Part shown: piece after piece, positions 8,753 through 56,300 of the stretch
Layout of the letters: each line of letters opens with the position of its first letter
Position numbering within the stretch: position 1 is the stretch's first letter
Source of the DNA: an uncultured Gemmatimonadota bacterium
GTDB taxonomy: Bacteria > JAAXHH01
Length of the DNA stretch: 64,000 nucleotides
Reading direction: 5' to 3'
Assembly: GCA_951812955.1 (NCBI GenBank)
Contig: OX638340.1
Span: 1,312,001-1,376,000, forward strand
Notes under the pieces: model-generated
Databases searched by the model: none
What the model was told of the DNA's origin: nothing
The model's input: only the letters and a program-made list of their open reading frames with translations
Program-made: the position numbers and the translations under genes

Positions 8753-8881
8753 TTGGGCTCCCATCTCGAAATGATCGACTTGTTTCTCTATTCAAAGCGC
8801 CACACTTCATCAGTCGGAAGCACATCATGAAATCTCGTTTTAGACTGCCATTAATCGGCCTGAACCCGCTCCAATCTCGTA

Positions 8882-8909
8882 TTGACTCCCACCCCTGATC
8901 CCGTATATT
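8882..8909 (+). promoter_or_regulatory. putative promoter of the tRNA-Arg pair
   Basis: TTGACT-N16-TATATT ends 11 nt before the first tRNA. Confidence 0.5.
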
Positions 8910-8920
8910 GTGGATGGTGC

Positions 8921-8994
8921 GCCCCAGTAGCTCAGTTGGACAGAGCATCGGACTTCTAATCCGAGGGTCGCAGGTTCGAATCCTGCCTGGGGTA
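8921..8994 (+). tRNA. tRNA-Arg (anticodon TCT)
   Basis: Cloverleaf folded by hand: acceptor GCCCCAG/CTGGGGT, D arm GCTC..GAGC, anticodon arm TCGGA-CTTCTAA-TCCGA, T arm GCAGG-TTCGAAT-CCTGC. Length 74 nt. Confidence 0.93.
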
Positions 8995-9054
8995 TGGGAA
9001 CCGGGCTTTCAGCGTAGTCCGCGCAGTGGTTGCGCCGGTTCCCGGTTCCCCCGT

Positions 9055-9128
9055 GCGTCCGTAGCTCAGCTGGATAGAGCAACTGACTTCGGATCAGTAG
9101 GTCGGGGGTTCGAATCCCTCCGGGCGTA
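9055..9128 (+). tRNA. tRNA-Arg (anticodon TCG)
   Basis: Acceptor GCGTCCG/CGGGCGT, anticodon arm ACTGA-CTTCGGA-TCAGT, T arm GGGGG-TTCGAAT-CCCTC. Length 74 nt. Confidence 0.93.
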
Positions 9129-9194
9129 TACATTTCATCGACATCCCCATCTGTTCATCGTTTCCAAGGCATCGATTGCCGGGAAGGAACGACC

Positions 9195-11209: not shown

Positions 11210-11321
11210 GAGGCCGGCGATTTCCGGCCTGATTCCGGCATGACTATCGGCCTGATTCCGGCCTGATTCCCTTTAGCATCTTCCGGGTTTATTCCAATGG
11301 GCTTACCCACCTGATTCCTAT

Positions 11322-34650: not shown

Positions 34651-34686
34651 CGGTTTTTGGTCGTGCCCCCAGGGATACTGGTAGCT

Positions 34687-34971
34687 ATGCACTCGATCAT
34701 CAAACAACACCGCACCGAGATCCTCGCCCTCGCCGAACTCCACGGCGTCGCCAATGTGCGCGTGTTCGGATCCATGGCAAGGGAAGATGCTGATGACTCG
34801 AGCGACGTCGATCTACTGGTGTCGCTGCCTTCTGGTAAAACAGGCCTCGCACTTGGCGCCCTGTTGATGGACGTGCAAGACCTTCTGCAACGGCGTGTGG
34901 AAGTCGTGACCGTGAAGAGTCTTCATCCTGCTCTCCGGGATAACGTGCTGAACGAGGCGCAGTCGCTATGA
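34687..34971 (+). CDS. mntA: MNT-type nucleotidyltransferase antitoxin (HepT-MntA type VII TA)
   Basis: The motif FGSMAREDADDSSDVDLLV (GS...DxD). 94 aa, with a 4-nt ATGA overlap onto the downstream HEPN gene. Confidence 0.85.
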   Translation: MHSIIKQHRTEILALAELHGVANVRVFGSMAREDADDSSDVDLLVSLPSGKTGLALGALLMDVQDLLQRRVEVVTVKSLHPALRDNVLNEAQSL

Positions 34972-35312
34972 AATCCGACGCGCGGTCCGATAGAGTGTTG
35001 CTGGAACACATCCGAGAGTGTATTGACCGTATTAGTGAATACACCGGCTGTAAGCGCTCATCGTTCTACGCCTCGCGTCTGGTTCAGGACGCAGTGGTAC
35101 GTAATCTGCAATTGCTTGCGGAGTCAACGCAACGCCTGAGTAACGCTGTTAAAGAAACCGAGACGGATATACCCTGGCGTGCCATTGCAGGATTTCGAAA
35201 CGTGCTCGTACACGGTTATCTTGAGATTGACCTCGATGCAGTTTGGAGCGTGGTTGAACAGGACCTCCCGAAGTTATCCAGGGCAATCGATCGCATGGTC
35301 CGATCCGTATGA
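34968..35312 (+). CDS. hepT: HepT (DUF86) HEPN-domain RNase toxin
   Basis: The Rx4-6H motif in FRNVLVHGY. 114 aa, in canonical position after MNT. Confidence 0.85.
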   Translation: MKSDARSDRVLLEHIRECIDRISEYTGCKRSSFYASRLVQDAVVRNLQLLAESTQRLSNAVKETETDIPWRAIAGFRNVLVHGYLEIDLDAVWSVVEQDLPKLSRAIDRMVRSV

Positions 35313-36569: not shown

Positions 36570-38087
36570 TTGACCGTCGGAGTGGTCTCAGTGAAAAGTA
36601 CCGAAATCCGTCCAATCTGGAATCCCCGTACCGGCATTGAAGGTCTTGACGGAGATCCCAATGAACTGAGTTCTTCCGAGATCCCCGGAATAAAAGCGAG
36701 CTGGACCGAGCAGCAGGAGCGGTTGAAGGACAAGGCCCAACTTTCTGACTTCACCGAGAAGTTGAGCCGGGAATGGGCAATAGAAACCGGTATTCTTGAG
36801 AATCTATACGAAATCGACCGTGGCGTCACGCAGACTCTCATCGAGCGGGGTTTTCAATCCGAAATTCTCAGCTACGGAACGACAAATAAGCCCCGAGAAT
36901 ACGTGATCCAACTCTTGCGAGATCAGAAGGAAGCCCTGGACGGCGTATTCGCGTTCGTCAAGAACGACCGGTCCCTCACTACGTCTTACATAAAAGAACT
37001 ACACGCGGCATTACTGCGCAACCAGCACACGACCGAGGCGCTCGACAGTCTGGGTAGAACAGTTGAAGTCCCGCTCCTCAAGGGAGACTGGAAAACCCAG
37101 CCCAACTACCCCGTCCGGGATGGCGTGACGTACAGCTACTGCCCGCCGGAACAGGTTAGTTCTGAGATGGACCGGTTGCTCGAGATGCATGAGGCGCAGG
37201 TCGAAAGCGGCGTGTCTGCCGAGGTACAGGCCGCTTGGCTGCATCATCGTTTCACCCAGATCCATCCCTTTCAAGATGGAAACGGACGCGTGGTCCGTGC
37301 GATCGCTTCACTGGTGCTCGTAAAGGAAGGACTTTTCCCGCTTGTGATAAGGAGGGACGACAGGGGCAGATACCTGGAAGCCCTCGAAGCCGCCGACCTC
37401 GGCGACCTGAACCCGCTTGTCATGCTGTTCACTGGACTGCAAAGAGATCAGTTCCTGAAGGCGACCAAGATATCTGAAGAACTACGTTTGGAAGAGGACG
37501 TGCAGGTAGTCTTGGACGGGCTGGACAGGGAAGCCCGCAGAATCGCAACGGAGAGGCTCAAGGCACACAGGGAGGTATTCGGTTTGGCCAGCGCTATCGA
37601 AAATGATCTAGAAGAACGTTTGAATACGATAGCAAAAGAAGTTTCGGGAGCACTAAATCAGGTAGCGTCCGGCGCAACTACATTCGTGCGAAGATCCGAC
37701 GAGAAAACGGATTATTTCTACAGGGCGCAGATCGTCAAGATTGCAAATGAACACATTGATTATTACGCCAATACGTCCGAATACCGATCATGGGTTTCAT
37801 TAAACATGCGATGGTCGCGTCGAGGGCAGTTGGTATTCGCGCTACACGGAATCGGCAAACCATTCAACGGTGGCCTTATCTGCGCGCCATTTCTGGAATT
37901 CAGAGATTACGACGATACCGACGAGGAGCACGGCGAGCGTCAATCAAATTCAACCCTCATTCCGGTCGCCGAGGAAGGTTTCGTTTTCTTCTACAACGAG
38001 GACAAGGATCGACTTCTCGGAAGGTTCAGGCCCTGGCGGGAAAACGTCCTCAAGATTGTCATAAAAGAACTCGCGCAAAACCTCTGA
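36570..38087 (+). CDS. Fic family protein (AMPylase-type) with an uncharacterised about 240-aa C-terminal region
   Basis: Fic core HPFQDGNGRVVR. The upstream TGILEN fits the inhibitory (S/T)xxxE(G/N) helix motif. TTG start at 36570, with GTG 36591 as an alternative. GC is about 52%. Confidence 0.85.
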   Translation: MTVGVVSVKSTEIRPIWNPRTGIEGLDGDPNELSSSEIPGIKASWTEQQERLKDKAQLSDFTEKLSREWAIETGILENLYEIDRGVTQTLIERGFQSEILSYGTTNKPREYVIQLLRDQKEALDGVFAFVKNDRSLTTSYIKELHAALLRNQHTTEALDSLGRTVEVPLLKGDWKTQPNYPVRDGVTYSYCPPEQVSSEMDRLLEMHEAQVESGVSAEVQAAWLHHRFTQIHPFQDGNGRVVRAIASLVLVKEGLFPLVIRRDDRGRYLEALEAADLGDLNPLVMLFTGLQRDQFLKATKISEELRLEEDVQVVLDGLDREARRIATERLKAHREVFGLASAIENDLEERLNTIAKEVSGALNQVASGATTFVRRSDEKTDYFYRAQIVKIANEHIDYYANTSEYRSWVSLNMRWSRRGQLVFALHGIGKPFNGGLICAPFLEFRDYDDTDEEHGERQSNSTLIPVAEEGFVFFYNEDKDRLLGRFRPWRENVLKIVIKELAQNL

Positions 38088-38140
38088 ATCAACGATTGCC
38101 GGACCACCCAGATGTGCGATGAGGTTACGAATCCACTCCG

Positions 38141-38947
38141 ATGCATTCTCTCAGCACATGTACAGTTGACCATCCCACGGACGCCGAACGTTTTCTTTTC
38201 GATACCAACGGCTACCTGGTGTTGGAGGATTTCCTCCAGGAATCCCTTGTCGATTCGCTCAATTCCGCGCTGGAGCGGACGATAGCGCGCCGGCGCGACC
38301 CCGAATTCAAACGGACGCACGAACCGGCCTTCGCCGACAGGCTCGGTAAAGCCAATGCGCGGGTCATGCACCTGCTGGCCGAAGATCCGCTCTTTCTGGA
38401 CATGCTCGACTACGAACCGATGATGGCCTACGTGCACGGTCTGTTCAACGAGATGCCCCATCTGCATTCGACTGATGCCTTCTATGAAATCGAGCAGGAG
38501 GAATACCACGGGCAGGGCTGGCATACGGACGGAATCCAGGCCGGATTCCGCAACTTCCGGCCGCACATACCGTTGTTACAGTTCAAGGTGGGGTATTACC
38601 TGAGCGACATGTCCGAACCCAACCAGGGCAACCTGAACCTCGTTCCCGGTAGCCATAAGTCCGTGGTCGAGCCAGACACGGAGGACGGCATGCCCGGCGC
38701 CGTTCAGATCTGCGGGCGTCCCGGCACGGCCGTGCTATTCCACAACGGGGTATGGCATTCGGCCGGACCGTTCACACGTCGCGGCGGCAAACGGGTAATC
38801 CTGTACTATGGGTACGAACACCCGTGGATGCTGGCTTGTGCGGAACAGTGGCGGTACGACAGGGACTTCCTGAACAACCTCACCCCGGCGCAGCGACGCT
38901 TTTTCCACGGTTTCGTCTTCGACCCGCCCGAGTATCGCTGGGGATGA
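38141..38947 (+). CDS. phytanoyl-CoA dioxygenase (PhyH) family oxygenase
   Basis: The N-terminus FDTNGYLVLEDFL, then WHTD (HxD) and a later VWHSAGP. Confidence 0.8.
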   Translation: MHSLSTCTVDHPTDAERFLFDTNGYLVLEDFLQESLVDSLNSALERTIARRRDPEFKRTHEPAFADRLGKANARVMHLLAEDPLFLDMLDYEPMMAYVHGLFNEMPHLHSTDAFYEIEQEEYHGQGWHTDGIQAGFRNFRPHIPLLQFKVGYYLSDMSEPNQGNLNLVPGSHKSVVEPDTEDGMPGAVQICGRPGTAVLFHNGVWHSAGPFTRRGGKRVILYYGYEHPWMLACAEQWRYDRDFLNNLTPAQRRFFHGFVFDPPEYRWG

Positions 38948-39088
38948 CCGGATGGGTCGGACGGACGGGATGACCGGACGATTCGAAACGAATTGCTATA
39001 AAAGTCCTGCTGGTGCCTACAGACGAAAGCCGAGTCCCGGGCAACCTGACTATCCGATTTCGTTGGCGTCCAGCGGGGATGAGCGTAA

Positions 39089-39478
39089 TCAGGCAGCCTT
39101 GCGATTCGGCAGTTTGCGCCTCATCATCACGCCTGGAAGCCGCTTCAGTCTTTCGTTGCGAGGATCGATCTCGAATCCGCCGGACTCCAGGGCCGTAACG
39201 CCAAGCAGCGGTTCCGTCCCTTCCGGGCCATACGCAATGGTCCCGCCAACGACCACGCCCTCGAATTCGATCTCGGCGACTGTTGCTTCCAGCGTGAGCT
39301 GTTTCCCGTCCGCGAGTACGTAGTCGCGACTCCCCCTCGGTTTGAGTCCAATCGCTTCGAGACGCTGCCTCGGTACGAGCGAGTCGAACGCGGCGGTATC
39401 GACAACGAACTTGCCGGTCCAGCTACGCCGTGGATCGGCGGGATTTCGGATCGTCACGTCGACATAAGTAGTCCCCAT
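39089..39478 (-). CDS. retropepsin-like (clan AA) aspartic protease, single-domain
   Basis: FVVDTAAF contains the D-T/S-A active-site triad and LLGVTALE is a flap/dimer-like motif. About 130 aa. The start at 39478 has GGAGGG upstream. Confidence 0.6.
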   Translation of the reverse strand: MGTTYVDVTIRNPADPRRSWTGKFVVDTAAFDSLVPRQRLEAIGLKPRGSRDYVLADGKQLTLEATVAEIEFEGVVVGGTIAYGPEGTEPLLGVTALESGGFEIDPRNERLKRLPGVMMRRKLPNRKAA

Positions 39479-39795
39479 ACTGAAATCCCTCCGGTGGGTA
39501 TCTCTTTCGATTGCACAAGTCAGATCTGATAATCCGTTGATCACCTTGTTAATATAGTCGTAATTCATTTGGTATTCTATTCGGTAATTTCGCTGAAGCG
39601 CACAGCGATCGGTTCGCCGATGGATTACATTATGTCGGAGGATTGTTCACCCGATTCGTCTGGAACGCTTTGGGTGGGCCGCGAAACCGCTTCACCCGGA
39701 ATGCTTCGAATGGGTCTCGGCTCCGCCGGACTGCACGGATGACGGAGTTTTGCAGAACATTTGGTCCTTCATTCCGTCGCCGTTACCGTACCCAT

Positions 39796-39847
39796 CCCAA
39801 ATCCTTGACACCGCCATCCCATTCTCCTTACTTCCCGTTGTAAGTCC
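39796..39847 (+). promoter_or_regulatory. second copy of the conserved box upstream of MNT copy 2
   Basis: The sequence is CCCAAATCCTTGACACCGCCATCCCATTCTCCTTACTTCCCGTTGTAAGTCC. It has the same TTGACA-N17-TTACTT and CTTAC-N8-GTAAG layout as 34601..34650. Confidence 0.4.
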
Positions 39848-39961
39848 TGCCGCTGTGGTCCGGTCGGATCTGTGGCGTTGGAAGGTGGGACCAATTACGT
39901 AAGTCTTTCCTTTTGTTGAACGCACGGCATCGATCAGGTCGTACCGAAGGATAAGGTAGCT

Positions 39962-40246
39962 ATGCACGCTATAATCGAACAGAACCGCGCGGAAATCCTC
40001 GCCCTTGCCGAACGCCATGGCGTCGCCGACGTGCGCGTATTCGGGTCCATGGCGAGGGGCGACGCCGACGACGCCGGCGATGTCGACCTACTGGTGTCAC
40101 TGTCGCCTGGCAAAACAGGTCTTGCACTCGGAGCGCTGTTGATGGACGTGCAGGACCTCCTGCAACGACGTGTTGAAGTCTTAACGGAGAAAAGCCTTCA
40201 TCCTGCCCTCCGTGAAAACGTGTTGCGCGAGGCGCAGCCGTTATGA
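39962..40246 (+). CDS. mntA: MNT-type nucleotidyltransferase antitoxin, copy 2 (orphan)
   Basis: About 83% identical by eye to copy 1, with the FGSMARGDADDAGDVDLLV motif. Confidence 0.85.
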   Translation: MHAIIEQNRAEILALAERHGVADVRVFGSMARGDADDAGDVDLLVSLSPGKTGLALGALLMDVQDLLQRRVEVLTEKSLHPALRENVLREAQPL

Positions 40247-40334
40247 AGTCAGACGCCTGGTCCGTAGAGTATCGCCCGAACACAACATTCCCGAATTAGC
40301 CAGGGCGATCGAGCGTATAGTTCATTCCACCTGA
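40243..40334 (+). pseudogene. hepT: hepT remnant (internal deletion of about 250 bp plus a 1-nt frameshift)
   Basis: It has the same ATGA overlap with MNT as the intact pair. The first about 44 nt align to the 5' end of intact hepT and the last about 50 nt align to its 3' end. The Rx4-6H region is absent. Read from the ATG, the frame stops after 18 codons. Confidence 0.75.
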
Positions 40335-40390
40335 TCCTTGAGAAGACCTCGCGGCCACGTGTCCTGCTGGCCGAGTGAAGGGTAATCATC

Positions 40391-40588
40391 ATGAATGTCA
40401 GTAAAGAAGAAAACACCAGACTCACTCCTTCGACAGTCAAACTCAAGCGGTTAATAGGGACCTCGCCTGCTCCTCGAATGTTGACGCCATACGAAATCAA
40501 GTTGCTGCGGCAAGCCGCGAAGGAAGTGGCCGAAGTTACGGAAGAAGTCCTCGCTGAGAAAGACAGTAGTAAGGAAGAAGGATGCTGA
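40391..40588 (+). CDS. small hypothetical ORF (65 aa) overlapping the cas3 start
   Basis: ATG ORF whose stop (GGATGCTGA) overlaps the cas3 ATG by 7 nt. The tail is charged and helical-looking. No recognised motif, and coding status is unproven. Confidence 0.35.
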   Translation: MNVSKEENTRLTPSTVKLKRLIGTSPAPRMLTPYEIKLLRQAAKEVAEVTEEVLAEKDSSKEEGC

Positions 40589-43045
40589 CCTTCGAGCGGT
40601 TTTTCTCCACAGCGTTCGGTAAAGACGTTTGTCCTTTCGCCTATCAACAGGCTCTCGCAAAGCAGGCCTGGCCAGACGCGCTCATTGCTCCGACCGGCCT
40701 TGGCAAGACCGCCGCGGTGGTGCTTGGTTGGGCCTGGAAACACGCCGTAGTCGAATCTCCAACTCCACGTCGCCTCGTTTATTGCCTGCCTATGCGCACG
40801 CTCGTCGAGCAAACCGAGCGGAATGTCAGAGAATGGCTGCGTGAACTGGGCAAAGCAAATACGGACTGGAAATCACGCCTTCCGGACCCTGAAGCCGGAG
40901 TCCATGTCCTCATGGGCGGCATGGATGAGCCGCGCTGGTTTGAAACACCTGAACGACCGGCCATCCTGATCGGAACTCAAGATATGCTGATCAGCCGCGC
41001 CCTGATGCGGGGGTACGCCATGAGCCGCTTCCGCTGGCCAGTGGACTTCGCCTTGTTGCACAACGACGCGCAGTGGGTTTTTGACGAAGTGCAATTGATG
41101 GGAGCAGGCCTGGCGACCTCTACACAACTCGAAGGTTTTCGTCGTACGTTCGGAACGGAGATCCCTTCGTGCAGTCTCTGGGTGTCAGCGACCCTTCACC
41201 CGGACTGGCTACATACGGTTGATTTCCAGCAACGTCCTACGGTGTGGCGTGTTCCATGTGATTTCCCCGACGATATACATTCATCGCAAGTCCTCAAACT
41301 GATTAACGCGTGTAAGCCAATTCAGCCGTCGTCCGTCGCGCCGATGAGTGCCAAGAAGGCCGATCTGAACGCATACGCGACAGCGTTGGCGAAGGAAACC
41401 CGGAGTCTGCACCAAGAAAACAATACGACGCTTGTGGTACTCAATACAGTCGCCCGCGCCCAAGCCGTGCATAAAGCACTTCAGAAGATGGATGTTGCGC
41501 CTGCTTGCCTTGCTCTCATCCACTCGCGGTTTCGGCCTAAAGATCGCACCCGGCAGATGGACAAGTTGCCGCAAACCGGGGAAACAAAAAAACTGATCGT
41601 AGTCGCGACGCAGGCGATTGAAGCAGGTATCGATCTATCAGCGGCGGTCCTGCTCACCGAACTCGCGCCTCCTTCGTCCCTTACCCAGCGGTTCGGTCGG
41701 GTAAATCGCTACGGTGAGTTGAACGATTCCGGTGGCGGGACGGTCCGCTGGATAGATATCATCGGAGGCGACCTCGGTGATTCGTTGGCGGCTCCGTATG
41801 AGATTAACGAACTCAAAATCGGGCGCGAGCGGATTGCCGCGTTAAAGGACGCTCGGCCCTCTAATCTCGTGCCGCCCGCATCAGACGACTGCGCCTATCG
41901 GGGTGTGATACGATCCAGGGATATGCTGGACCTATACGACACCGATCCGGATTTGACCGGCTTTGATGTCGATATCGCTCCTTACGTCCGCGATGCTGAA
42001 GATACCGATATTCGAGTTTTCTGGCGCGATTTCGACGTGCAGTCTGGACCAGAGGACCAGACTGCACCCATGCGGGACGAGCTTTGTGCGGTTCCGATTG
42101 GGCGCGCGCGTAACTGGCTTAGGGATGTCAGAAAGAAGGAAGGGCAGCGGGTATTTCGCATAGACCCGCAGGCACGAGCTAATGGGAAGGGTAGCGTTCC
42201 GACTTGGACCGCGTTCCGAGAGGAACCGTGGCCGGGTTTGGTGTTGATGGTTCATGCGAGTGCTGGGGGTTATGCACCGGACACGGGGTTTGATCAGGGT
42301 CTAAAAACAGCAGTCGAGCCTGTGAAGCTAGGAGAGGAACAGCAGACGGCAGACGAGTCGAACGACGGCGATTCCGACAGCGAGCAGAGCAGGTGCGTGG
42401 AACTGACGGATCATCTGGACCACGTGGCTTTTGAAGCCAGATACCTATGCGATGGCCTCGACGTTTGTGAAGCTTGGAAAGCCACAATCCTCCAGGCAGC
42501 GTACTGGCACGACCTCGGTAAAGCACACCCTGAGTTTCAGGCGCGAATGGTTGCAAGTAACACGGAGGCCGACCCACCACCAGAAGGGTTGCTAGCCAAG
42601 GCTCCGAAGTACGACCGCACGAAAGGACGTGCATATTTCCGGCACGAACTTGCGTCTGCACTAGCATTTCTCACACAAGCAGGCTGGGTACGCAAGGCCG
42701 ATCTTGTTGCGTACCTGATAGCCGCCCATCACGGCAAGGTACGCCTGAACTTGCGTCCCCTACCAGCCGAAAGTCGGGTAATGGGGGAGGATGGACGGCG
42801 TTTTGCTCGCGGCGTGTGGGAGGGAGACGAGATACCGTTGGTTAGTTTGGGCAATGGGGAAACATGGACAGGGGGGCCACTCGCACTATCCGTGATGGAG
42901 TTAGGCGAGCATCCGGAAACTGGGGCAAGTTGGACCGAGCGTACGCGAAATTTGCTTTCCCAGTACGGTCCTTTTCAGCTCGCTTGGTTGGAGGCACTTG
43001 TACGTATCGCCGACTGGCGGGCATCAGCAAAAGAAGAACGAGGTC

Positions 43046-43062
<17 letters not shown>
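40582..43062 (+). CDS. cas3: type I-G (I-U) Cas3 helicase-nuclease with N-terminal helicase and C-terminal HD domain
   Basis: Walker A APTGLGKT, DEAD-like FDEVQLMG, and helicase C IVVATQAIEAGIDLS. HD residues sit at the C-terminus (HLDHV, WHDLGK, FRHELAS, AAHHGK). Confidence 0.9.
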
Positions 43063-46598
<3,536 letters not shown>

Positions 46599-46605
46599 GT
46601 CTCGA

Positions 46606-48240
46606 ATGTTTGCACTTACTTTCACCTTTCCTTTGGGCCGCTATCACGCAACGCCGTGGGGGCGCCATGTCAACGAAGCCGATGTCGCTTGGCCGCCAGA
46701 GCCTTGGCGCATTCTTCGTGCGCTCGTCGCTACCTACTGGCGCAAAGGCGACCGGGTACGCTGGTCCGAGGACACACTCGCCCGTCTAGTAGACGCGCTA
46801 GCCCAGGATGCGCCGATCTATCACTTGCCCCCAGGCGTGATCCACGCACATACCCGGCATTACATGCCCACACCTAAAATGACGCTCGTCTTCGACGCCT
46901 TTGCCCACTTGTCTAAAGACGAACAGATCGTAGCGGCTTGGCCAGAACTCGAATTGGACGTCGAACTATTTGATTTGGCGGCTGATCTCGCAGAGGGGCT
47001 CGGCTACCTGGGGCGTGCCGAGAGTTGGGTTGAATGCGGAACGATAACCGACTGGAACCAAGATGTGGCAAACTGCCATCCTGTGGGCCAAAATGGGACC
47101 GCCCACGGGGAGATAGTGCGAGTGCTCACACCGCTCAGTGCTCAGGATTATATGGTGGAGCGTACGCGCCTGTTGGAGGAAGTTGACGATGCAGAGCGAG
47201 ACCGCACCGCTGCTTCCGGCAAGAGACCTCCTACCCCCAGAGCCCTTGAAAGGGCACGCAACAAAGCGTTCGGGCCGACCCTTCCTGATCGTCTGGTCGA
47301 AGCCTTGATGCTCGATACGGCCGATTACCAAAAATACCGTTGGAACCGACCGCCAGCCTCACGTGAGATTGTTTATACACGTCCGCCTCTGTCCCCTGTT
47401 CCTCGCCGTGCCCGGATTCGTGCAACAGTTGATGACCGCAGACAATTCACCGTAGCGCGCTTTCTTTTGGCCGGCCGTCCCCGACCTCGTATTGAGGATG
47501 CGGTCAAGATCGGTGAACTCATGCGGCTTGCCGCGCTTTCCAAGTTTGGTTGGGAGGACAAGAGACCCAGAGCACCGTCGGTGATATCAGGCCGGGGTTC
47601 TGATGGCCGACCATTACGCAACGGCCAGCATTCGCATGCGTTTTGGTTGCCCGAGGACGCCGATGGCGATGGCTGGATTGACCATATAACGGTTTACGCA
47701 GAGGAAGGTTTCGATGTTTCAGTGCGCGAGAAGCTGGATCGACTGACCCGTTTGTGGGTCGGTGGAGACGATTCCGGTGGAGAGGAAGGAGATAAAGAGA
47801 CCGGTCGCCAAGAGTGGCGACTGGCCTTGGAGGGCTTTGGCCGCCCGGAGGACTTTGCGGACACATCAAGGCTATTTAGCTGTTCAGATGAATGGGAAAG
47901 TGTAACACCTTTTTTGGCGTCTGGTCACTTAAAAAAGGCCGGGTATGAAGGCGAGATACATCGGCTTTGGAAGCGCAGACGAGTCACATCTGGTTCGCAT
48001 ACTGAGCCTGTACAGGTCGAAATCTTGCGCCACATCGAGATTCACGGTACTCTCCGTAGAGCAGTGCATTTTCATCGATTCCGTTCACGGGGACGAGAGA
48101 AGCAACCCGACGCGCAAGGGGCCTTGCTGCGCCTGAGTTTTAACGAGCCAGTTACAGGACCCTTAGCTCTTGGATATGCCTGCCATTTTGGTCTTGGAAT
48201 GTTCGCACGCCCAATCCTAGACGCAAAATCGGAACAATGA
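46606..48240 (+). CDS. csb2: type I-G Cas5-Cas6 fusion (Csb2)
   Basis: The N-terminus FTFPLGRYHATPWGRHVNEADVAWPPEPWRILRAL is typical of Csb2. 544 aa. Confidence 0.85.
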   Translation: MFALTFTFPLGRYHATPWGRHVNEADVAWPPEPWRILRALVATYWRKGDRVRWSEDTLARLVDALAQDAPIYHLPPGVIHAHTRHYMPTPKMTLVFDAFAHLSKDEQIVAAWPELELDVELFDLAADLAEGLGYLGRAESWVECGTITDWNQDVANCHPVGQNGTAHGEIVRVLTPLSAQDYMVERTRLLEEVDDAERDRTAASGKRPPTPRALERARNKAFGPTLPDRLVEALMLDTADYQKYRWNRPPASREIVYTRPPLSPVPRRARIRATVDDRRQFTVARFLLAGRPRPRIEDAVKIGELMRLAALSKFGWEDKRPRAPSVISGRGSDGRPLRNGQHSHAFWLPEDADGDGWIDHITVYAEEGFDVSVREKLDRLTRLWVGGDDSGGEEGDKETGRQEWRLALEGFGRPEDFADTSRLFSCSDEWESVTPFLASGHLKKAGYEGEIHRLWKRRRVTSGSHTEPVQVEILRHIEIHGTLRRAVHFHRFRSRGREKQPDAQGALLRLSFNEPVTGPLALGYACHFGLGMFARPILDAKSEQ

Positions 48241-48444
48241 AACGCAGCATTTACAATGACACCTCAGTCATTGGAGTTTGTTATAGAGTTGTTTCAAGGA
48301 AGCTATAACTGTCGATCGATTCTTACATAATCTCGATGTTGTTCATACAGCCTTAAGTCGAGACGTATCCCTGGACCCACGACAGCTAAAACGTACGAAC
48401 ATTTTGCAGAACGAGTAGCCGCGAATACTTCAGCGACTCACCAC

Positions 48445-50157
48445 ATGAACCACATCCACCAACTCACGCTACCAATACCTCCGCCCCCAGTCGACGCGAA
48501 TACGCCATTGGTCCCAGCGCGCATGGTCAACGAATGGGTCTATTGCCCGCGACTGGCCTACCTGGAATGGGTTGAAGGAGAGTGGGCGGAGACGGGAGAC
48601 ACCGCCGAGGGACGGCGTACACACGTAAGGGTCGACGAAGGTGGCGGCCGTCTGCCCGGACCGGAAGAACTGGATGATGAGATGGCCCGCGCCCGGTCCG
48701 TCACGCTTTCGTCGGATCGTCTCGGCGTAATCGCCAAGATAGACGTCGTGGAAGCCGAAGAAGGAATCGTCACGCCCGTGGATTTCAAGAAAGGCAAGCG
48801 TCCCCATGTCGCCACTGGCGCCTACGAGCCCGAACGCGTCCAGATCTGCACGCAGGCCATGATCCTGGAGGACAATGGTTACAGAGTGGAGCGCGGTATG
48901 CTCTGGTACGCCGGGTCGCGTGAGCGCGTCCCGGTGATGCTTGACGATGAACTTCGATCCCTGACCCTGGCGGCAATCAGAGAATTGCGCGTCGCCGCGG
49001 CTGATGGCCGTCGGCCACCGCCTCTGGAAAACAGCCCGAAGTGCCCCCGCTGTGCCCTGGCGGGGATCTGTCTGCCCGACGAAACCAACCTGTTCCGCAA
49101 AGGGACTGCACCACGCCCGCTGAACCCATCGGATGATCCGGCCCTGCCGCTCTACGTACAGGAACCGGGGGCGCGACTGCGAAAGAGCGGTGAGCGCTTG
49201 GTGGTGGAAATCAAGGAAGAATCCGTAGAGGTACCCATAATCGACGTTTCCCAGGTCGCTCTGTTCGGCCCCGTCTCGGTGACCACACCGGCTCTGCACG
49301 CGCTGATGAACGCGGAGATTCCGGTATCGTGGTTTTCCACGGGAGGCTGGTTCCTCGGCCATACAGTAGGAACAGGGCATGGAAACGTGGCCGTTCGCGA
49401 AGCGCAATACCGCGTAGCCTTCGATAAAGGCGCTCGCCTTGCCTTCGCGCGCGATCTCGTGGCGGCTAAGGCGCGTAACGCCCGTACGATGTTGCGTCGC
49501 AACTGGCGCGTCAATATGGACGCGGAAATCAGGGATGAAGCCCTAGTCCGGCTCAGGGGAGTCGTGCGCCGCATCTCCCGCGCCACGGACGAAAGCCAAC
49601 TGCTGGGCCTGGAAGGCGAGGCCGCCGCAGTGTATTTCAACTGCTTCGAGCACATGCTTGCTAAGGATCTGGACGGCGGCGCGACGGGGTTCTCCTTCAC
49701 CAAGCGCAATCGGCGGCCTCCCACGGATCCGGTGAACGCGCTCCTGTCGCTGGCCTACGCTTTGTTGACGCGGGTATTCACTACGACCATCTCGGCGACG
49801 GGGCTCGACCCCTACATGGGCCTCTACCACCATACGCGCCACGGGCGCCCGGCGCTGTCCCTCGATCTAATGGAACCGTTCAGACCTATTGTCGCCGACT
49901 CCTGCGTTATTCAAGCCATCAACAACGGCGAAGTAAAGCTGGCCGATTTCGTGTTCAACGGGGCTGCTTGTTCGCTGAAGCCTGCTGGTCGCAAGTCCTT
50001 CATCGCCGCGTTCGAGCGGCGCATGGAGCAGGAGACCACACATCCGCTTTTCGGCTATCGCGTTTCCATGCGGCGACTTATCGAGGTACAGTCCCGATTG
50101 CTCGCCCGGCATTTTCAGGGAGAGATCGTCTCTTACCCTCATTATCTTCCCCGGTAG
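48445..50157 (+). CDS. cas1: Cas4-Cas1 fusion integrase/nuclease
   Basis: The N-terminal Cas4 part has YCPRLAYLEW and the Cys cluster CPRCALAGICLPDE. The C-terminal Cas1 part has PLYVQEPGARLRK...PTDPVNALLSLAY...GLYH. Confidence 0.9.
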   Translation: MNHIHQLTLPIPPPPVDANTPLVPARMVNEWVYCPRLAYLEWVEGEWAETGDTAEGRRTHVRVDEGGGRLPGPEELDDEMARARSVTLSSDRLGVIAKIDVVEAEEGIVTPVDFKKGKRPHVATGAYEPERVQICTQAMILEDNGYRVERGMLWYAGSRERVPVMLDDELRSLTLAAIRELRVAAADGRRPPPLENSPKCPRCALAGICLPDETNLFRKGTAPRPLNPSDDPALPLYVQEPGARLRKSGERLVVEIKEESVEVPIIDVSQVALFGPVSVTTPALHALMNAEIPVSWFSTGGWFLGHTVGTGHGNVAVREAQYRVAFDKGARLAFARDLVAAKARNARTMLRRNWRVNMDAEIRDEALVRLRGVVRRISRATDESQLLGLEGEAAAVYFNCFEHMLAKDLDGGATGFSFTKRNRRPPTDPVNALLSLAYALLTRVFTTTISATGLDPYMGLYHHTRHGRPALSLDLMEPFRPIVADSCVIQAINNGEVKLADFVFNGAACSLKPAGRKSFIAAFERRMEQETTHPLFGYRVSMRRLIEVQSRLLARHFQGEIVSYPHYLPR

Positions 50158-50162
50158 CGACT

Positions 50163-50456
50163 ATGGCCAACGAACGTCTCTACATCGTCGCCTACGACAT
50201 ATCCGAGCCAAAGCGATGGCGGCGCGTGTACAAGCTGATGAAAGGCTATGGGCACTGGTTGCAGTTGTCGATTTTCCAGTGCAGGCTCACGGCCCGGCGA
50301 CGCGCGGAAATGACCGCTCGTCTGGAGGAATCGATCGATCTGTCGGAGGACCACATTCTGATCGTGGACATGGGTCCCGCGGACAAAGTGGATCCATTGG
50401 TAGAAAGCCTGGGCAAGGCATATGAAGCGCCGACTCGAAAAGCCACCGTCGTGTAG
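50163..50456 (+). CDS. cas2: Cas2 endoribonuclease
   Basis: LYIVAYDISEPKRWRRVYKLMKGYGHWLQLSIFQC is a typical Cas2 fold sequence. 97 aa. Confidence 0.9.
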   Translation: MANERLYIVAYDISEPKRWRRVYKLMKGYGHWLQLSIFQCRLTARRRAEMTARLEESIDLSEDHILIVDMGPADKVDPLVESLGKAYEAPTRKATVV

Positions 50457-50665
50457 CCGTGCCTTTGCCGGGTCCTCCGCGAACGCTCCGGTGGAAGGGA
50501 AATGCCGGGCAGCGCTCGCGTCCTGGTATTTGTTTGTTCTGCATGGAGTTACGAGGCATTGTAACTGATTTCGGGGAGGGCGATTTGAATGTCCGTGAGA
50601 TTTTAGCAGCAGTGCTCGCAAAAGGCCTGACAAGCCTAAGTCTGCCAAAGAGTTGCTAAGGAACT
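50457..50665 (+). promoter_or_regulatory. CRISPR leader
   Basis: Non-coding 209 bp between cas2 and the first repeat. Repeat degeneration at the far end of the array supports this polarity. Confidence 0.6.
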
Positions 50666-53281
50666 ATTTCCGGGGCTGCGCAGCCCCGGCCTCATTGAAG
50701 CGCCGCCATATCGATCCGGATAGAAGGTTGTCCGTTCGATTTCCGGGGCTGCGCAGCCCCGGCCTCATTGAAGCACCATATGCCGGCGCGGTGATTGGGT
50801 ATTTGCGGCACGATTTCCGGGGCTGCGCAGCCCCGGCCTCATTGAAGCATCCGTCATCATAAAACCCCCGTAAATGGCCATAGGGATTTCCGGGGCTGCG
50901 CAGCCCCGGCCTCATTGAAGCCGTCGTCGCGATGGCGGTGTTCGGTGGCAACCTGTGATTTCCGGGGCTGCGCAGCCCCGGCCTCATTGAAGCCACCAGA
51001 ATACCCATGCGGCCGATAACGAGGTGCTGCTTATTTCCGGGGCTGCGCAGCCCCGGCCTCATTGAAGCCGATCCTTCCGCGAAGTGTCCGGCCTGCACCG
51101 CTCCATTTCCGGGGCTGCGCAGCCCCGGCCTCATTGAAGCATGAGTTGACGCTCCGAGATACCCAGCAGCGTCGCGAGATTTCCGGGGCTGCGCAGCCCC
51201 GGCCTCATTGAAGCCGGAAGATGTTGCTCCCCTGGCCGTCGGTGAAGAAGTTATTTCCGGGGCTGCGCAGCCCCGGCCTCATTGAAGCCGGAAGATGTTG
51301 CTCCCCTGGCCGTCGGTGAAGAAGTTATTTCCGGGGCTGCGCAGCCCCGGCCTCATTGAAGCGAGAAGATCTCCCCGGATAACGTGGACGACCCCACCGG
51401 CATTTCCGGGGCTGCGCAGCCCCGGCCTCATTGAAGCCGGTTGGCCTCCGGGTCCGGCTCGGTTTCGTGCGGTTGATTTCCGGGGCTGCGCAGCCCCGGC
51501 CTCATTGAAGCTTGGAAGCCATGATGGCCTTGGTGCCCAGGGCGAGCGCCATTTCCGGGGCTGCGCAGCCCCGGCCTCATTGAAGCTAGGCCTCCTCGCT
51601 GGCGAATCCCATCTTGTACCACTATTTCCGGGGCTGCGCAGCCCCGGCCTCATTGAAGCTCGTACACGTGGGCGGTGGTCAGCACCACCTTGGAACCGGA
51701 TTTCCGGGGCTGCGCAGCCCCGGCCTCATTGAAGCGTCGGTTTCGTCCTCGGTGTCGCGGTGACGACGCTCTATTTCCGGGGCTGCGCAGCCCCGGCCTC
51801 ATTGAAGCATCAAACACACCCTTCAAGCGTAAACATAGGCCCTGGATTTCCGGGGCTGCGCAGCCCCGGCCTCATTGAAGCCCATCAGTGTGGTCGACTG
51901 CTGCCTGCGTGTGCTGGAGAAATTTCCGGGGCTGCGCAGCCCCGGCCTCATTGAAGCCCATCAGTGTGGTCGACTGCTGCCTGCGTGTGCTGGAGAAATT
52001 TCCGGGGCTGCGCAGCCCCGGCCTCATTGAAGCATGCACATCTCGAAGTCACAGGACCAGACACAGGTGACGATTTCCGGGGCTGCGCAGCCCCGGCCTC
52101 ATTGAAGCCACGGAAGGCAGCCAGGGTCGCACCGCTGGCACCCAGATTTCCGGGGCTGCGCAGCCCCGGCCTCATTGAAGCCAAGCAATCGAACGCAAGC
52201 ACAAGCGGACGCTCGACCATTTCCGGGGCTGCGCAGCCCCGGCCTCATTGAAGCTAAGGGTATTGTCCAGGACGATGACCTGAATGAATATATTTCCGGG
52301 GCTGCGCAGCCCCGGCCTCATTGAAGCCTGTGCAAAACGCGCGGTACTTGAAATTGGCCCGTGTCATTTCCGGGGCTGCGCAGCCCCGGCCTCATTGAAG
52401 CGTGATTGATCAATTTCGAGATTAACCGTTATTTCCTCCATTTCCGGGGCTGCGCAGCCCCGGCCTCATTGAAGCAGGAACACGTGGAAGAGGTAGGAGC
52501 AGACGCGAAACCATTTCCGGGGCTGCGCAGCCCCGGCCTCATTGAAGCGAAGCTCCTGTTGAGTCTGTGAACGACTGGACGGGTTAATTTCCGGGGCTGC
52601 GCAGCCCCGGCCTCATTGAAGCGATGCAATCAGAAACCTCCTTCATCGTCGCATCCTGATATTTCCGGGGCTGCGCAGCCCCGGCCTCATTGAAGCGATT
52701 CATCGTTGGCGTTGTCGTCCACCTCCTCGGCGAGGTATTTCCGGGGCTGCGCAGCCCCGGCCTCATTGAAGCCAAGTTGACAGACATAGGAATCCAGCCT
52801 TACGCGTCCACATTTCCGGGGCTGCGCAGCCCCGGCCTCATTGAAGCTCTGAAAAAGACCTGTTGCTCCACCCCATCGAGGACGTATTTCCGGGGCTGCG
52901 CAGCCCCGGCCTCATTGAAGCGCCTTGTCGCGGATAGCCCTTGCCTGCTCCTCCAAAGCCATTTCCGGGGCTGCGCAGCCCCGGCCTCATTGAAGCCTCC
53001 AACACCAGCAACAGCACGGCAGGGTCCCTGGGCATTTCCGGGCTGCGCAGCCCCGGCCTCATTGAAGCGAATCTCCCTCCAGCGGGTTGCAGTCCTTCAG
53101 GTCCTGGGTTTCCGGGGCCGCACGGCCCCGGCCTCATTGAAGCGAGATCCCCCCGGACCCTGGTAAGGCGTCGGCGGGCAGTGTTTCCGGGGCCGCTCGG
53201 CCCCGGCCTCATTGAAGCTCGGATCCTAACTACGACCTGTTCATTATCAATTGCGTTTCCGGGCTGCGCGGCGAGGATCGT
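50666..53281 (+). CRISPR. CRISPR array: 35 repeats of 36 nt plus one degenerate terminal repeat, and 35 spacers of 36-40 nt
   Basis: The repeat is ATTTCCGGGGCTGCGCAGCCCCGGCCTCATTGAAGC, with an internal 20-nt perfect palindrome and an ATTGAAGC 3' end. I located every repeat by hand: first at 50666-50701, last intact at 53183-53218, degenerate remnant from 53255. Confidence 0.98.
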
Positions 53282-53282
53282 G

Positions 53283-53303
53283 GGCCCTGATCCAGGGCTT
53301 TTA
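53283..53303 (+). terminator. weak hairpin plus T-run after the array
   Basis: GCCCTG-ATC-CAGGGC followed by TTTT. The stem is short. Confidence 0.3.
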
Positions 53304-53340
53304 GACGTTTCGTTTCCAGACAGACTGATTTCAACGTATA

Positions 53341-56300
53341 ATGAATATCAGGAAACACCGTAACACTCATCATCCTCGACGCATTTCGCAAAGGAATTGT
53401 GCCTTGAGGTTTCTTGTCGTTCCCGTCGTCCTCTCGATCATTATCCTTCCGTCGTGCGGCAGGGAAAGCCCCACGGGACCGCCGCAGGCGGCCAGCATCA
53501 GGATATCGCCGGCCGAGGCCGTGCTGGACGCCATTGGCGCGACCGTGCAGCTCACTGCGTCGGTCCGGGACGGGAACGATCGGGAGGTACCGGACGCTGC
53601 CGTGACGTGGACCAGCGGTAACACCGAAGTGGCCAGCGTGACTGACGAGGGCCTGGTCACGGCCCGGAAGAACGGTTCCGCAGTCATCACGGCCGTTTCA
53701 GGGCAATTCCAAGCGAATGCCGCAGTCACGGTATCGCAGGCGGTCGCTAACATCGAGGTTGCGCCCGCCAGCGTGTCGCTGACGAAGACGGACGGGGCTC
53801 TGCGGGTCGACGCAGTGGTGAAAGACAGGAAAGGCAACCTGGTGGCGAACGCGCTGCTCGTCTGGACAAGCAGCGATCCCTTCGTCGTCTCAGTGAACGC
53901 CCTGGGAGTCCTCGAGGCGCGGTCGAACGGAAACGCCCGGATCACCGTGTCTTCAGGGGACGTATCGACAAGCGTGGAAGTCACGGTCTCGGGTTTCGGA
54001 CCGGATGCGCTGGACCGCGTCGCCCTGGTCGCGCTGTTCAACGAAACGGGCGGACCGGGATGGACGCTCGCCACAAACTGGTCGAGCGACTCGCCCCTGG
54101 CCGAGTGGCACGGGGTGGCGACCGATGCCGAAGGAAGGGTGATCGAATTGTTGCTCGACGGGAACGGCCTGAAGGGCGCGATCCCGGAGGAACTGGTCCG
54201 GCTGACAAGGCTCCGAGCTCTTTCCCTCGCACGCAATCAGTTGACAGGAAGCATACCCCCCGGAATCGGACGACTCGCCAGACTGGAGGTGCTGGAGGTT
54301 TCCTACAACCGTTTGACGGGAAGCATACCCCCCGAATTCGGACGACTCACCAGACTCAGGGAACTCGGCGCCAACGGCAACAACTTCTCGCCCGGGCCAT
54401 TGCCCCGGGCTATGACCAATCTCGACAACCTCGAGTTCCTGGGACTCGCGGGAACATCGCTGTGCGCGCCGCTCGACGCAGATTTCCAGGCCTGGCTCGG
54501 CGCGATAGACGACGTTGAAGTGGACAACTGCGAGGACATGGAGCGGAGCGCGCTGATCGCGTTGTACAACGCGACGGACGGAGGAAACTGGACCGAACGG
54601 GACAATTGGCTCACCGGCGTGCCCCTGAGCGCCTGGCACGGAGTTGCGACAAATGACCAGGGCCAGGTAACGGGCTTGGATCTGGCAGACAACAACCTGA
54701 GGGGAACACTGCCGACCCGACTGAGCGATCTCCGGTCTCTGAGCGGTTTGGACCTGTCCAACAACTCCGGGCTGACGGGACCGCTGCCCGTGTCGCTTGG
54801 CAGTCTCAGTCTAACGGCCCTCAAACTAGGCGGAACGGATCTATGCGCGCCGCTGGACCCCGCTTATCAGGCCTGGCTGGCCGCCATCGGGGACATACGG
54901 GTCGCTGGCTGTCCCGCCGACATCGCCCCCGACCGGGTGGCGTTGACCGCGCTATACGGCGAAACGGGCGGTGCGTACTGGAAGGAGTCCGCCAACTGGC
55001 TCGGCGAAGCGCCATTGCGAGACTGGTACGGCGTCGAGACCGACGCCGAAGGGCGTGTGACCTCCATTGACCTGAGGTACAATAACCTGAGGGGGCGGCT
55101 GCCTCCGGAATTGGCGCTGATCGACAGGCTGGAAGCGTTGCGTCTTGCCGGCAACGGCCTGACGGGGCAGATACCGCCAGAACTCGCGCGCCTCGACCGA
55201 CTCTCTGCGTTGGATCTTTCGGTGAACCTGCTGACGGGCTCCATTCCACCGGAACTGGGCCGACTGGCAGACCTCTCCGTCCTTGATCTCTCCGCCAACG
55301 GATTGACCGGGTCCGTTCCACCCCAACTGGGACGACTCGACCGACTATCCGTCCTCGACCTCCGACTCAACCGGTTACACGGCCCCGTTCCGTCCGAACT
55401 GGGGAACCTCCGCAGCCTCGGGCGACTGGCACTCTCCTCCAACGAGTTGACCGGCCGCGTGCCGCCGGAACTGGGATTATTGGCAAACCTCTCCGTCCTC
55501 GACCTCAGACTCAATCGGTTACACGGCCCCGTACCACCCGAACTGGGACGACTCGCAAACCTCAAGGAACTGAATCTCGCCAGGAACGGCTTTACGGGCC
55601 CCGTTCCACCCGAACTGGGACGGCTCCCAAACCTCGAGGATCTGGAACTCTCCACCAACGAGTTGACGGGCCCCGTTCCGCCCGAACTGGGACGACTCGC
55701 AAACCTCAAGGAACTGAATCTCGCCACCAACGGCCTGACGGGCCCCGTTCCGCCCGAACTGGGACGACTCGCAAACCTCGTCACGCTGAGCCTGGCGTCG
55801 AATCAGCTGACGGGATCGGTCCCGCCCGAACTGGGACGACTCGCAAATCTCGTCACGCTGAGTCTTTCCGGTAACGCCGCGCTGTCGGGGACGTTGCCGC
55901 GCGCGTTGCTCAACCTCGACCTGGCCTCCCTGCTCCTGGCCGGTACGCGCCTCTGCGCGTCCCGGGACGTGGAGACTCAGGCTTGGTTGCGGGATATCGA
56001 TGAAAGGCGCGTTTCCGACTGCGGCGATTCCGTCCCGCTTATTATGTCTGCGTATCTCACACAGGCGGTGCAGTCCCTCGAAAATCCAGTGCCGCTGGTT
56101 GCCGGCAAGCCCGCGCTCCTGCGCGTATTCTTAACGAACGGCGGCATGGCCGACGCCAAACGGCCGCCGGTACGCGCTACATTCTACCGGAACGACCTTC
56201 CAGTGCACACGACCGAGATATCGGGCGGAGACGATAGACTGCCGGACAGTCCGGAGGAAGGACAACTCGCGGCTTCATCCAACGCCGCGATACCGGCCGA

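Follow-up and report, generated by a model that had tools for sequence, protein, structure and literature searches.

The type I-G CRISPR-Cas locus in a 64,000-nucleotide stretch of DNA from an uncultured Gemmatimonadota bacterium, called the window here, raises the question whether a short open reading frame (ORF) ahead of cas3 is a gene and what its product might do. The ORF has 65 codons (positions 40391-40588, forward strand), starts with ATG and encodes MNVSKEENTRLTPSTVKLKRLIGTSPAPRMLTPYEIKLLRQAAKEVAEVTEEVLAEKDSSKEEGC. Its stop codon TGA (40586-40588) overlaps the ATG of cas3 (40582-40584) by 7 nucleotides (nt), in GGATGCTGA. ORF and overlap are present as described in the original prediction, which proposed translational coupling to cas3. 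It represents a widespread overlapping gene that had so far gone unnoticed. The window has an orphan copy of this gene, which forms the first cistron of a recombined type I-G effector operon. In the window and about 25 other type I-G loci, the overlapping frame, that of a phosphoribosyltransferase (PRTase)-fold gene, is destroyed, and the small frame is intact, selected and usually located right before cas3. These statements on identity and selection are considered highly probable.

A widespread family of small proteins

The length of the ORF alone is uninformative, as 16 kb of this G+C-rich DNA contain 142 ORFs of at least 40 amino acids (aa). Its significance is based on homologues and on selection that is specific to its frame. 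Among 5.8 billion proteins, 35 homologues were retrieved, all 60-96 aa long (E-values between 7e-27 and 6e-7). When 1.84 billion cluster representatives were searched exhaustively with a profile, 199 clusters, nearly all of them short, came out at E<=1e-3. The alignment of the homologues has a variable N-terminus and a variable tail around the invariant core G-TSPAPRMLTPYEI-x-LLRQ (consensus GTSPAPRMLTPYEIxLLRQ). The core region aligns without gaps over 59 copies and every invariant residue is intact in the window copy. In the AlphaFold (AF2) model (pLDDT 79), helices at residues 13-22 and 33-63 form a two-helix hairpin with the invariant loop between them. All structure models in this work, of the small protein and of the PRTase, are monomers only.

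The family is undescribed but widespread. Pfam, NCBIfam and PADLOC contain no family for the small protein. Searching 36 family members against Pfam at E<=10 yielded noise only, with no helix-turn-helix (HTH), ribbon-helix-helix (RHH), Phd or other known antitoxin family among the matches, and a sequence-profile search of the PDB gave insignificant matches only. In the literature searched, neither the ORF nor its overlap with the PRTase gene was found described, and the same holds for a PRTase in type I-G and for a PRTase domain in Csb2 or any other Cascade subunit. Among 2.9 million viral contigs, no relative of the small protein was detected. Anti-CRISPR proteins (Acr) and anti-CRISPR-associated proteins (Aca) are carried by phages or other mobile elements, usually with an HTH gene for the Aca. 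Such an identity is not supported for the small protein, given the lack of viral relatives, the chromosomal location and the position as first gene of a cas operon.

The gene overlaps a phosphoribosyltransferase-fold gene

In about nine loci the ORF lies inside a csb2 gene of ~790 aa, in another reading frame. These long Csb2 proteins have a ~250-aa insert between the Cas5-like and Cas6-like parts. The insert domain also exists as a stand-alone gene of ~245 aa, and about 1,350 homologues are found at E<=0.001. It contains the invariant motif DDF.GQGGT, an intact phosphoribosyl pyrophosphate (PRPP)-loop motif. The AF2 model (pLDDT 90) has a type I PRTase fold followed by a three-helix C-terminal extension. 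Foldseek aligns this model with ComF (best match), APRT, OPRT, XPRT, PurR and ShosT at E-values from 6e-6 to 1e-3. The type I phosphoribosyltransferase fold is assigned to the host gene on these grounds, with a Pfam match below the curated cutoff. Over the last ~55 PRTase codons, which encode exactly the three-helix extension, the +1 frame is the small ORF. Inspection of 80 PRTase loci showed no conserved neighbouring gene; the surroundings are variable and resemble defence islands, with restriction-modification genes, insertion sequence (IS) elements and, in 4 of the 80, type I-G. The embedded ORF is the sole constant companion of the PRTase gene.

The Csb2 insert with the nested +1 ORF marks one type I-G variant, present in the locus L040:8680-11052 and also in L010, L016, L019, L020, L024, L036, L042, L052, L070, L096 and L110. 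Shorter Csb2 homologues without the insert are encoded in L050 (482 aa) and L034 (502 aa). An intein or other mobile insertion in csb2 was rejected: splicing motifs are absent and the same domain forms a stand-alone gene family. At L054:9800-10135, the PRTase C-terminus is in frame with the core of the small protein, as by a 1-nt indel. This looked like an in-frame fusion, but L076, a close relative, has both frames arranged as usual. A frameshift in this copy or an error of assembly is therefore more probable for L054 than programmed frameshifting.

Selection on the hidden frame

A first synonymous-site test on embedded copies (0.55 vs 0.20) was set aside as circular, because these loci had been found via the small-protein motif. 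The test was therefore repeated on an unbiased set of 80 metagenomic PRTase genes, located by motifs outside the overlap (VQxNVVxHTG and DDFIGQGG). For 46 non-redundant genes, the fraction of identical-residue pairs with different codons is 0.59-0.75 over the first 200 alignment columns and 0.19-0.43 over the last ~55. Mean synonymous difference in the PRTase frame is 0.65 outside the overlap and 0.31 inside (Mann-Whitney p=1e-17).

In all 45 PRTase genes compared, the +1 ORF is open, against an expected 6.8. It always starts with ATG and has a median length of 62 aa. The expectation was obtained by resampling synonymous codons with each gene's own usage, which gives a mean open probability of 0.15. 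The hidden ORF is kept in PRTase genes with only 41-55% identity, including those on viral or prophage contigs, and the +2 frame is always closed. In embedded copies the DNA of the core is nearly invariant. These results cover the part of the ORF inside the PRTase gene; the tail past the PRTase stop is short (median of 5 codons) and saturated. The hidden +1 frame is maintained by selection.

The window copy outlived its host frame

In the window, a 3' relic of the PRTase-fold gene lies in the reading frame of cas3, one base back from the small ORF. It is detected by tblastn as a match to PRTase residues 206-246 (49% identity, E=1e-4). The three-frame view shows a degraded motif, FDSQTQAVNRDLACSSNVDAIRNQVAAA, in place of the family's FDCLTQSEARYLARSPDVDTIRNRLAAA, and stop codons on both sides. 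The PRTase frame is stop-broken and degraded in 29 copies including that of the window. The broken copies keep only the last 40-65 PRTase codons, and their 5' truncation points cluster just upstream of the start of the small ORF.

In 25 PRTase-broken copies, nucleotide diversity at the three codon positions of the small frame is 0.25, 0.15 and 0.40, respectively. The pairwise ratio of nonsynonymous to synonymous substitution (dN/dS) in PRTase-broken copies is 0.29 for the small frame, 0.83 for the second frame and 1.66 for the PRTase frame. Both measures identify the small frame as the frame under purifying selection. The tblastn and dN/dS analysis upstream of related type I-G cas3 genes, as proposed with the original prediction, thus recovers homologous ORFs with a dN/dS of 0.29. 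A spurious ORF in the 5' untranslated region of cas3, which had also been considered, is rejected by this conservation and purifying selection.

The junction with cas3 and exchange of the effector cassette

Position 40582 is the first cas3 start codon past the in-frame stops, and the resulting Cas3 N-terminus, MLTFERFFSTAFG, agrees with relatives that start with MTFDQFFSTAFG. The window ORF is preceded by a weak Shine-Dalgarno-like sequence (Table 1); most embedded copies elsewhere have AGGAG 7 nt before the ATG. A promoter and terminator scan around the ORF gave nothing above background. An Rfam scan of 38000-54000 matched CRISPR repeats only, with no match for a structured cas3 leader, and folding of the ORF region yielded no stable RNA structure (z-score +1.3).

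The junction separates two differently related DNA segments. From 39900 to about 40540, the window has 95-100% DNA identity to the locus L055, after which identity collapses. L055 encodes the closest small protein (93% identical), followed by an 87-nt gap and a different cas3 (928 aa, Cas8g2-type cassette). From 40566 onward, the window has 93-95% DNA identity to L056. In round figures, the window is ~99% identical to L055 up to ~40555 and ~94% identical to L056 from 40566. The small protein of L056 is only 65% identical, yet it shares the tail (DSKEEGC) and the 7-nt overlap. The switch in identity therefore places the breakpoint within the final ~8 codons of the ORF, and it indicates that the overlap geometry came with the cas3 cassette. 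The window is a mosaic in which the effector cassette (cas3 to csb2) was exchanged.

A third locus, L006, shares both flanks of the window (MNT nucleotidyltransferase 96% and Cas4-Cas1 95% identical), with an unrelated effector cassette (Cas3 36% identical). This pattern fits repeated cassette exchange at this site. As Cas4-Cas1 is far more conserved than Cas3 across loci, co-evolution of the ORF with the adaptation module was considered and rejected: the small ORF of L006 is 61% identical to that of the window. With the flanks conserved and both the ORF and Cas3 divergent, the ORF travels with the effector side or the junction. An exchange of effector cassettes inside a small gene bears on the shuffling of CRISPR modules between co-resident bacteria.

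The 7-nt overlap is not a trait of the family and is confined to the window and the sub-clade that donated this cas3 (L056). Where the ORF and cas3 meet otherwise, the junctions vary between a 1-nt gap and +87 nt, and many loci have the ORF away from cas3 altogether. Of the proposed translational coupling, the compatibility of the overlap with coupled translation holds. The geometry itself arrived with the recombined cassette and varies among loci.

Genomic distribution

A genome scan located 53 loci in many phyla (Latescibacterota, Binatia, Gemmatimonadota, Gammaproteobacteria, Acidobacteriota, Rhodothermales, Nitrospirales and others), 42 of which have type I-G cas genes within 10 kb. At least 15 loci have the ORF directly ahead of cas3, at distances between -7 and +87 nt. 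It is also found after csb2 and between divergent cas4-cas1 and cas3, where it is sometimes duplicated. Within the loci retrieved, several type I-G cas3 genes have no ORF before them, for example in the second system of L016 and L021. In the unbiased set of 80 PRTase loci, type I-G context is found for 4 and the other 76 are outside CRISPR loci.

Duplicated copies are present between divergent cas4-cas1 and cas3 in L030, L038 and L044 (~8800-11500), one an orphan and the other PRTase-embedded. Some duplicates have decayed (L030_11331, L029_9710 and L046). At L018:10190-10219, the 3' end of the ORF is joined directly to a CRISPR repeat, of which the 3' part is present (CCGGCCTCATTGAAGC). This suggests that the entire cas operon between ORF and array was deleted. 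The related Binatia loci L001, L009 and L011 have the ORF beside a DUF58-BatA-VWA operon, and their cas genes are partly or wholly lost.

Genes for a ~515-aa protein with AAA-ATPase_like and PDDEXK_9 domains recur beside L003, L004, L005, L006, L014, L021, L037, L039, L046, L047, L049, L056 and L058, sometimes in two copies. Many of the source genomes have names (IRC4, APA, RHO, COS1, Plut) that we take to denote bins of sponge or coral symbionts. Names of this style occur in the records of L004, L022, L025, L040, L045 and L051 and of many OZ/OY chromosomes. The type I-G-linked clade, which has Tyr in the core, may circulate within host-associated communities.

Possible function of the small protein

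Distant relatives of the small protein (hhalign probabilities of 97-99%) are linked to toxin-antitoxin genes. In two unrelated contigs they are the third cistron after the genes of the HigB toxin and the HigA antitoxin (L141:3030-3888 and L147:138-1023). In a protein found on 14 contigs, the small motif is fused behind the HTH of an Xre-like antitoxin (PF20432; P0277). Xre-like antitoxins usually carry a toxin-binding domain behind the HTH, a place held here by the small motif. In L142-L145, the genes after this fusion of Xre-like HTH and motif encode a HigA-like protein and a C5 DNA methylase.

PRTase-fold proteins serve as toxic effectors in other defence systems, namely ShosT of ShosTA (PMC11961720) and Retron-Eco11 (PMC12746101), and DS-32A is a further defence toxin system with this fold (bioRxiv 10.1101/2025.01.08.631726). 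The gene that hosts the overlap resembles them in its PRTase fold with an intact DDFxGQGGT motif, and ShosT is among its structural matches. Each of these systems pairs the PRTase with a neutralising partner: the DprA-like ShosA, a reverse transcriptase with a non-coding RNA, or NADAR. In contrast, the presumed partner here is the overlapping 65-aa ORF and the best fold match is ComF. ShosTA itself, in which ShosT (~410 aa) has a PRTase and a second domain and is encoded next to the DprA-like ShosA, was rejected as an identification, given the absence of a PADLOC match and of a conserved neighbour and the size of ~245 aa.

The genetic linkage typical of a toxin-antitoxin module is extreme in this family, as the PRTase gene and the small gene share DNA, and by analogy with ShosT the PRTase may be the toxin. 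L030 has an intact orphan copy and, 1.2 kb away, a PRTase gene that is itself intact but whose embedded copy has decayed (is truncated). The links to HigB-HigA and Xre-like proteins, the PRTase toxins known elsewhere, the arrangement in L030 and the constant embedding together speak for a protein that binds a partner in the manner of an antitoxin. Such a partner protein or regulator is the best guess, put forward tentatively and with rather low confidence.

According to this proposal, the small protein would be made from the cas3 transcript, and translation of cas3 could be coupled to that of the small ORF. It would bind its partner via the invariant loop-helix (GTSPAPRMLTPYEIxLLRQ) and most likely act as an antitoxin-like neutraliser or regulator of a PRTase-fold effector. 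The window copy might be kept as an orphan 'immunity' copy, or be re-used to modulate the Cas3-containing effector. For the explanation as a whole, from the hidden gene to this role, the chances of being right and of being wrong appear evenly balanced.

A broader version assumes that the PRTase gene is a two-in-one module, an effector (a toxin or a nucleotide-sensing domain) with its own controller in the +1 frame, which was captured by type I-G systems. On Csb2 in some loci, and thereby on Cascade, the PRTase domain would provide an extra, possibly abortive-infection output. In others, the window among them, the controller alone would have been retained at the head of the cas3 operon, tuning Cas3 or guarding against related PRTase toxins. 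This version is rather speculative and probably does not hold in full. If the toxin and antidote reading is true, the pair would constitute a new minimal defence or addiction module in the footprint of a single gene.

Several observations weigh against an antitoxin-like role or limit the evidence that leads to it. The toxin-antitoxin links come from few distant relatives, and PADLOC does not recognise the PRTase as ShosT. Foldseek with the hairpin model is uninformative and yields non-specific small helical hairpins such as Tim9/10. Copies associated with type I-G have a core signature of their own, with Tyr in TPYEI where Ser prevails elsewhere, a hint that their function may have become specific to CRISPR loci. 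Orphans are still selected with no PRTase gene within 10 kb, and the 64-kb window contains none. Selected orphans fit a PRTase-independent role no less well than an orphan antitoxin. As to the statistics, the resampled sequences behind the comparison of 45 open frames with 6.8 expected are related, so that their joint probability is inexact. The PRTase-broken copies, finally, were found by small-frame similarity, which inflates the apparent conservation of that frame.

Alternative roles

The original prediction had named a regulator and an accessory subunit as possible roles. Both are less probable than an antitoxin-like partner, and the gene is not specific to cas3 or to type I-G (4 of 80 unbiased loci). 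The small protein could regulate the cas operon, either as an autoregulatory leader that sets the dosage of Cas3 or as a DNA-binding co-repressor acting with HTH proteins. The ORF is indeed the first cistron of the effector operon in the loci (at least 15) where it precedes cas3, and its distant relatives are fused or adjacent to Xre and HigA HTH proteins. To our reading, the motif of helix 1, TPSxxxLxRxxGxSP, may resemble the last helix of an Xre-type HTH. However, no HTH or RHH was detected at any threshold and the model is a two-helix hairpin. Most members reside at a PRTase 3' end with no conserved downstream gene to regulate, and the position relative to cas3 varies and includes places after and inside csb2. 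Regulation of the cas operon is regarded as unlikely.

A structural accessory of the type I-G effector, such as a Cas11-like small subunit or an adaptor of Cas3, is less probable still. Type I-G has no identified Cas11; the interference complex of Thioalkalivibrio was reconstituted in E. coli with Cas8g, Csb2, Cas7 and Cas3 alone (PMC9638904). This leaves room for a small subunit, and the ORF is small, helical and tightly linked to cas3, with a distinctive invariant core common to type I-G copies across three Cas8g variants. On the other hand, interference evidently works with the four proteins, and the ORF is therefore not a canonical type I-G component. Known Cas11 proteins are about twice as large as the small protein, and 76 of the 80 unbiased loci are outside CRISPR loci. 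Furthermore, the core is invariant while Cas3 and Cas8 fall to 25-35% identity, unlike the behaviour of co-evolving subunits.

A decaying relic, that is, a leftover PRTase 3' end whose alternative frame is open by chance and has no function in this genome, is improbable. In favour of a relic, the ORF does derive from the 3' end of a PRTase gene, it lies in a recombination scar beside the HepT gene with its internal deletion, and some duplicate copies have clearly decayed, as mentioned above. Yet on the same nucleotides the PRTase frame has stops and a dN/dS of 1.66, against 0.29 and normal codon periodicity in the small frame. All invariant residues are intact in the window copy, and the retained fragment always begins shortly before the start of the small ORF.

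A conserved DNA or RNA element, be it a hotspot of recombination, an anchor of homology where cassettes are exchanged or a structured leader of cas3, could account for the breakpoint inside the ORF, the position at cassette boundaries in many loci and the nearly invariant core DNA of embedded copies, but is very improbable given variation biased to third positions, a low dN/dS in one frame only, the lack of an Rfam match or stable fold (z=+1.3) and an amino-acid motif conserved in distant relatives with different DNA. If the ORF does anchor homologous exchange, this may simply follow from its conservation.

Comparison with known systems

Overprinted genes, which overlap another gene out of frame, are well known in viruses, and in bacteria they are rare and mostly unproven. 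The family has their signature, a long +1 ORF that is open against expectation and a local suppression of synonymous change in the host frame. It differs in that the overlap is kept across a family of about 1,350 detected homologues in many phyla and that the small gene survives free-standing after loss of the host frame. A small gene that outlives its host frame must have a value of its own. Lineages that lost the host frame but kept the hidden gene form a natural control for a well-supported, long out-of-frame overlapping gene in bacteria, conserved across a large family and invisible to gene callers.

The small antitoxins and third components of type II toxin-antitoxin systems are similar in size, in their helical and partly disordered character and in their defence-island context. 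The distant relatives noted above occupy matching places, as third cistron of HigB-HigA operons or as C-terminal part of an Xre-like antitoxin. The family differs from type II antitoxins in the absence of a sequence or profile match and in its main form, which lies inside the gene of the presumed partner, out of frame, and not in an upstream cistron.

Cas11 of types I-B, I-C and I-D arises by internal translation within cas8 and is likewise a small helical protein from inside a larger cas gene. In some type I-G loci, the small ORF is nested in csb2 and has its own AGGAG Shine-Dalgarno sequence. In contrast to the small ORF, which is out of frame, located in the PRTase insert and mostly found outside CRISPR loci, Cas11 is in frame with cas8 and CRISPR-specific. 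An identification as the Cas11 small subunit (a helical bundle of ~100-130 aa) was rejected for a two-helix hairpin of 65 aa with no Cas11 match in Pfam, NCBIfam, PADLOC or the PDB.

CreTA modules, an RNA toxin and RNA antitoxin under the control of Cascade, are similar as addiction-like elements within or next to a type I effector operon. In the present family, however, it is a protein that is conserved, and the surroundings of the ORF showed no repeat-like RNA. Type I-G systems are under development for genome editing. Many of their operons are headed by this unannotated component and some have a PRTase-fold domain in Csb2, either of which could alter the behaviour of the system.

The type I-G locus and its surroundings

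Matches in Pfam, NCBIfam, PADLOC and Rfam give a complete type I-G locus, in agreement with the assignment made in the original prediction. It comprises cas8g/csx17, cas7 (GSU0053), csb2, a Cas3 with C-terminal HD domain, cas4-cas1, cas2 and an array (Table 1).

Table 1. Features of the window in and around the type I-G locus.
Feature	Position	Strand	Evidence or remark
MNT-type nucleotidyltransferase (antitoxin-like)	39962..40246	+	Pfam NTP_transf_2; left flank common to L055 and L006
HepT toxin gene remnant, internal deletion	40243..40334	+	DNA alignment with the intact MNT-HepT pair 34657-35312
Weak Shine-Dalgarno-like AAGGG, 8 nt before the ORF ATG	40378..40382	+	read from sequence
Gene of the small protein (65 aa; N-terminus variable, then a short helix, the invariant loop and a long C-terminal helix)	40391..40588	+	
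PRTase-fold gene 3' relic, cas3 reading frame, stop-broken	40408..40530	+	
Invariant-core codons GTSPAPRMLTPYEIKLLRQ, residues 23-41	40457..40513	+	(nearly) invariant columns of the homologue alignment
Zone of the recombination breakpoint, within the 3' end of the small ORF	40545..40566		DNA identity to L055 vs L056
7-nt overlap ATGCTGA, small ORF stop and cas3 start	40582..40588	+	sequence; same geometry in L056
cas3, helicase N-terminal and HD nuclease C-terminal	40582..43062	+	Pfam DEAD, Helicase_C, Cas3-like_C_2, Cas3_HD
cas8g1/csx17, start codon uncertain	42998..45652	+	NCBIfam TIGR04113 E=5e-183; PADLOC Cas8g
cas7 (GSU0053/Csb1)	45642..46598	+	Pfam PF09617 E=4.5e-43
csb2 (Cas5-Cas6 fusion), without PRTase insert	46606..48240	+	NCBIfam TIGR02165 E=2.4e-50
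cas4-cas1 fusion	48445..50157	+	Pfam Cas_Cas4, Cas_Cas1
cas2	50163..50456	+	Pfam CRISPR_Cas2 E=3.4e-18
CRISPR array, 35 repeats (ATTTCCGGGGCTGCGCAGCCCCGGCCTCATTGAAGC)	50665..53218	+	TRF; Rfam RF01330 CRISPR-DR16

The MNT gene upstream of the ORF has 96% amino-acid identity to its counterpart in L006 and ~100% DNA identity to that in L055. The adjacent HepT remnant retains the 5' and 3' ends of the gene only, with an internal deletion of roughly 250 nt. The window contains two MNT nucleotidyltransferase genes, which are 83% identical, and the upstream one has an intact HepT toxin partner (pair at 34657-35312). Between the two copies, 36570-38947 encodes a PhyH dioxygenase and a 505-aa protein with a Fic/DOC domain. 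The nearly identical L055 has a DUF4258-DUF2283 pair in place of the Fic gene. Directly after the CRISPR array, a 1383-aa ORF (53341-57492) encodes Big_2/Big_1 immunoglobulin-like domains and has a weak match to Peptidase_M66. Its long leucine-rich-repeat region is made up of 72-nt tandem repeats (55232-55852).

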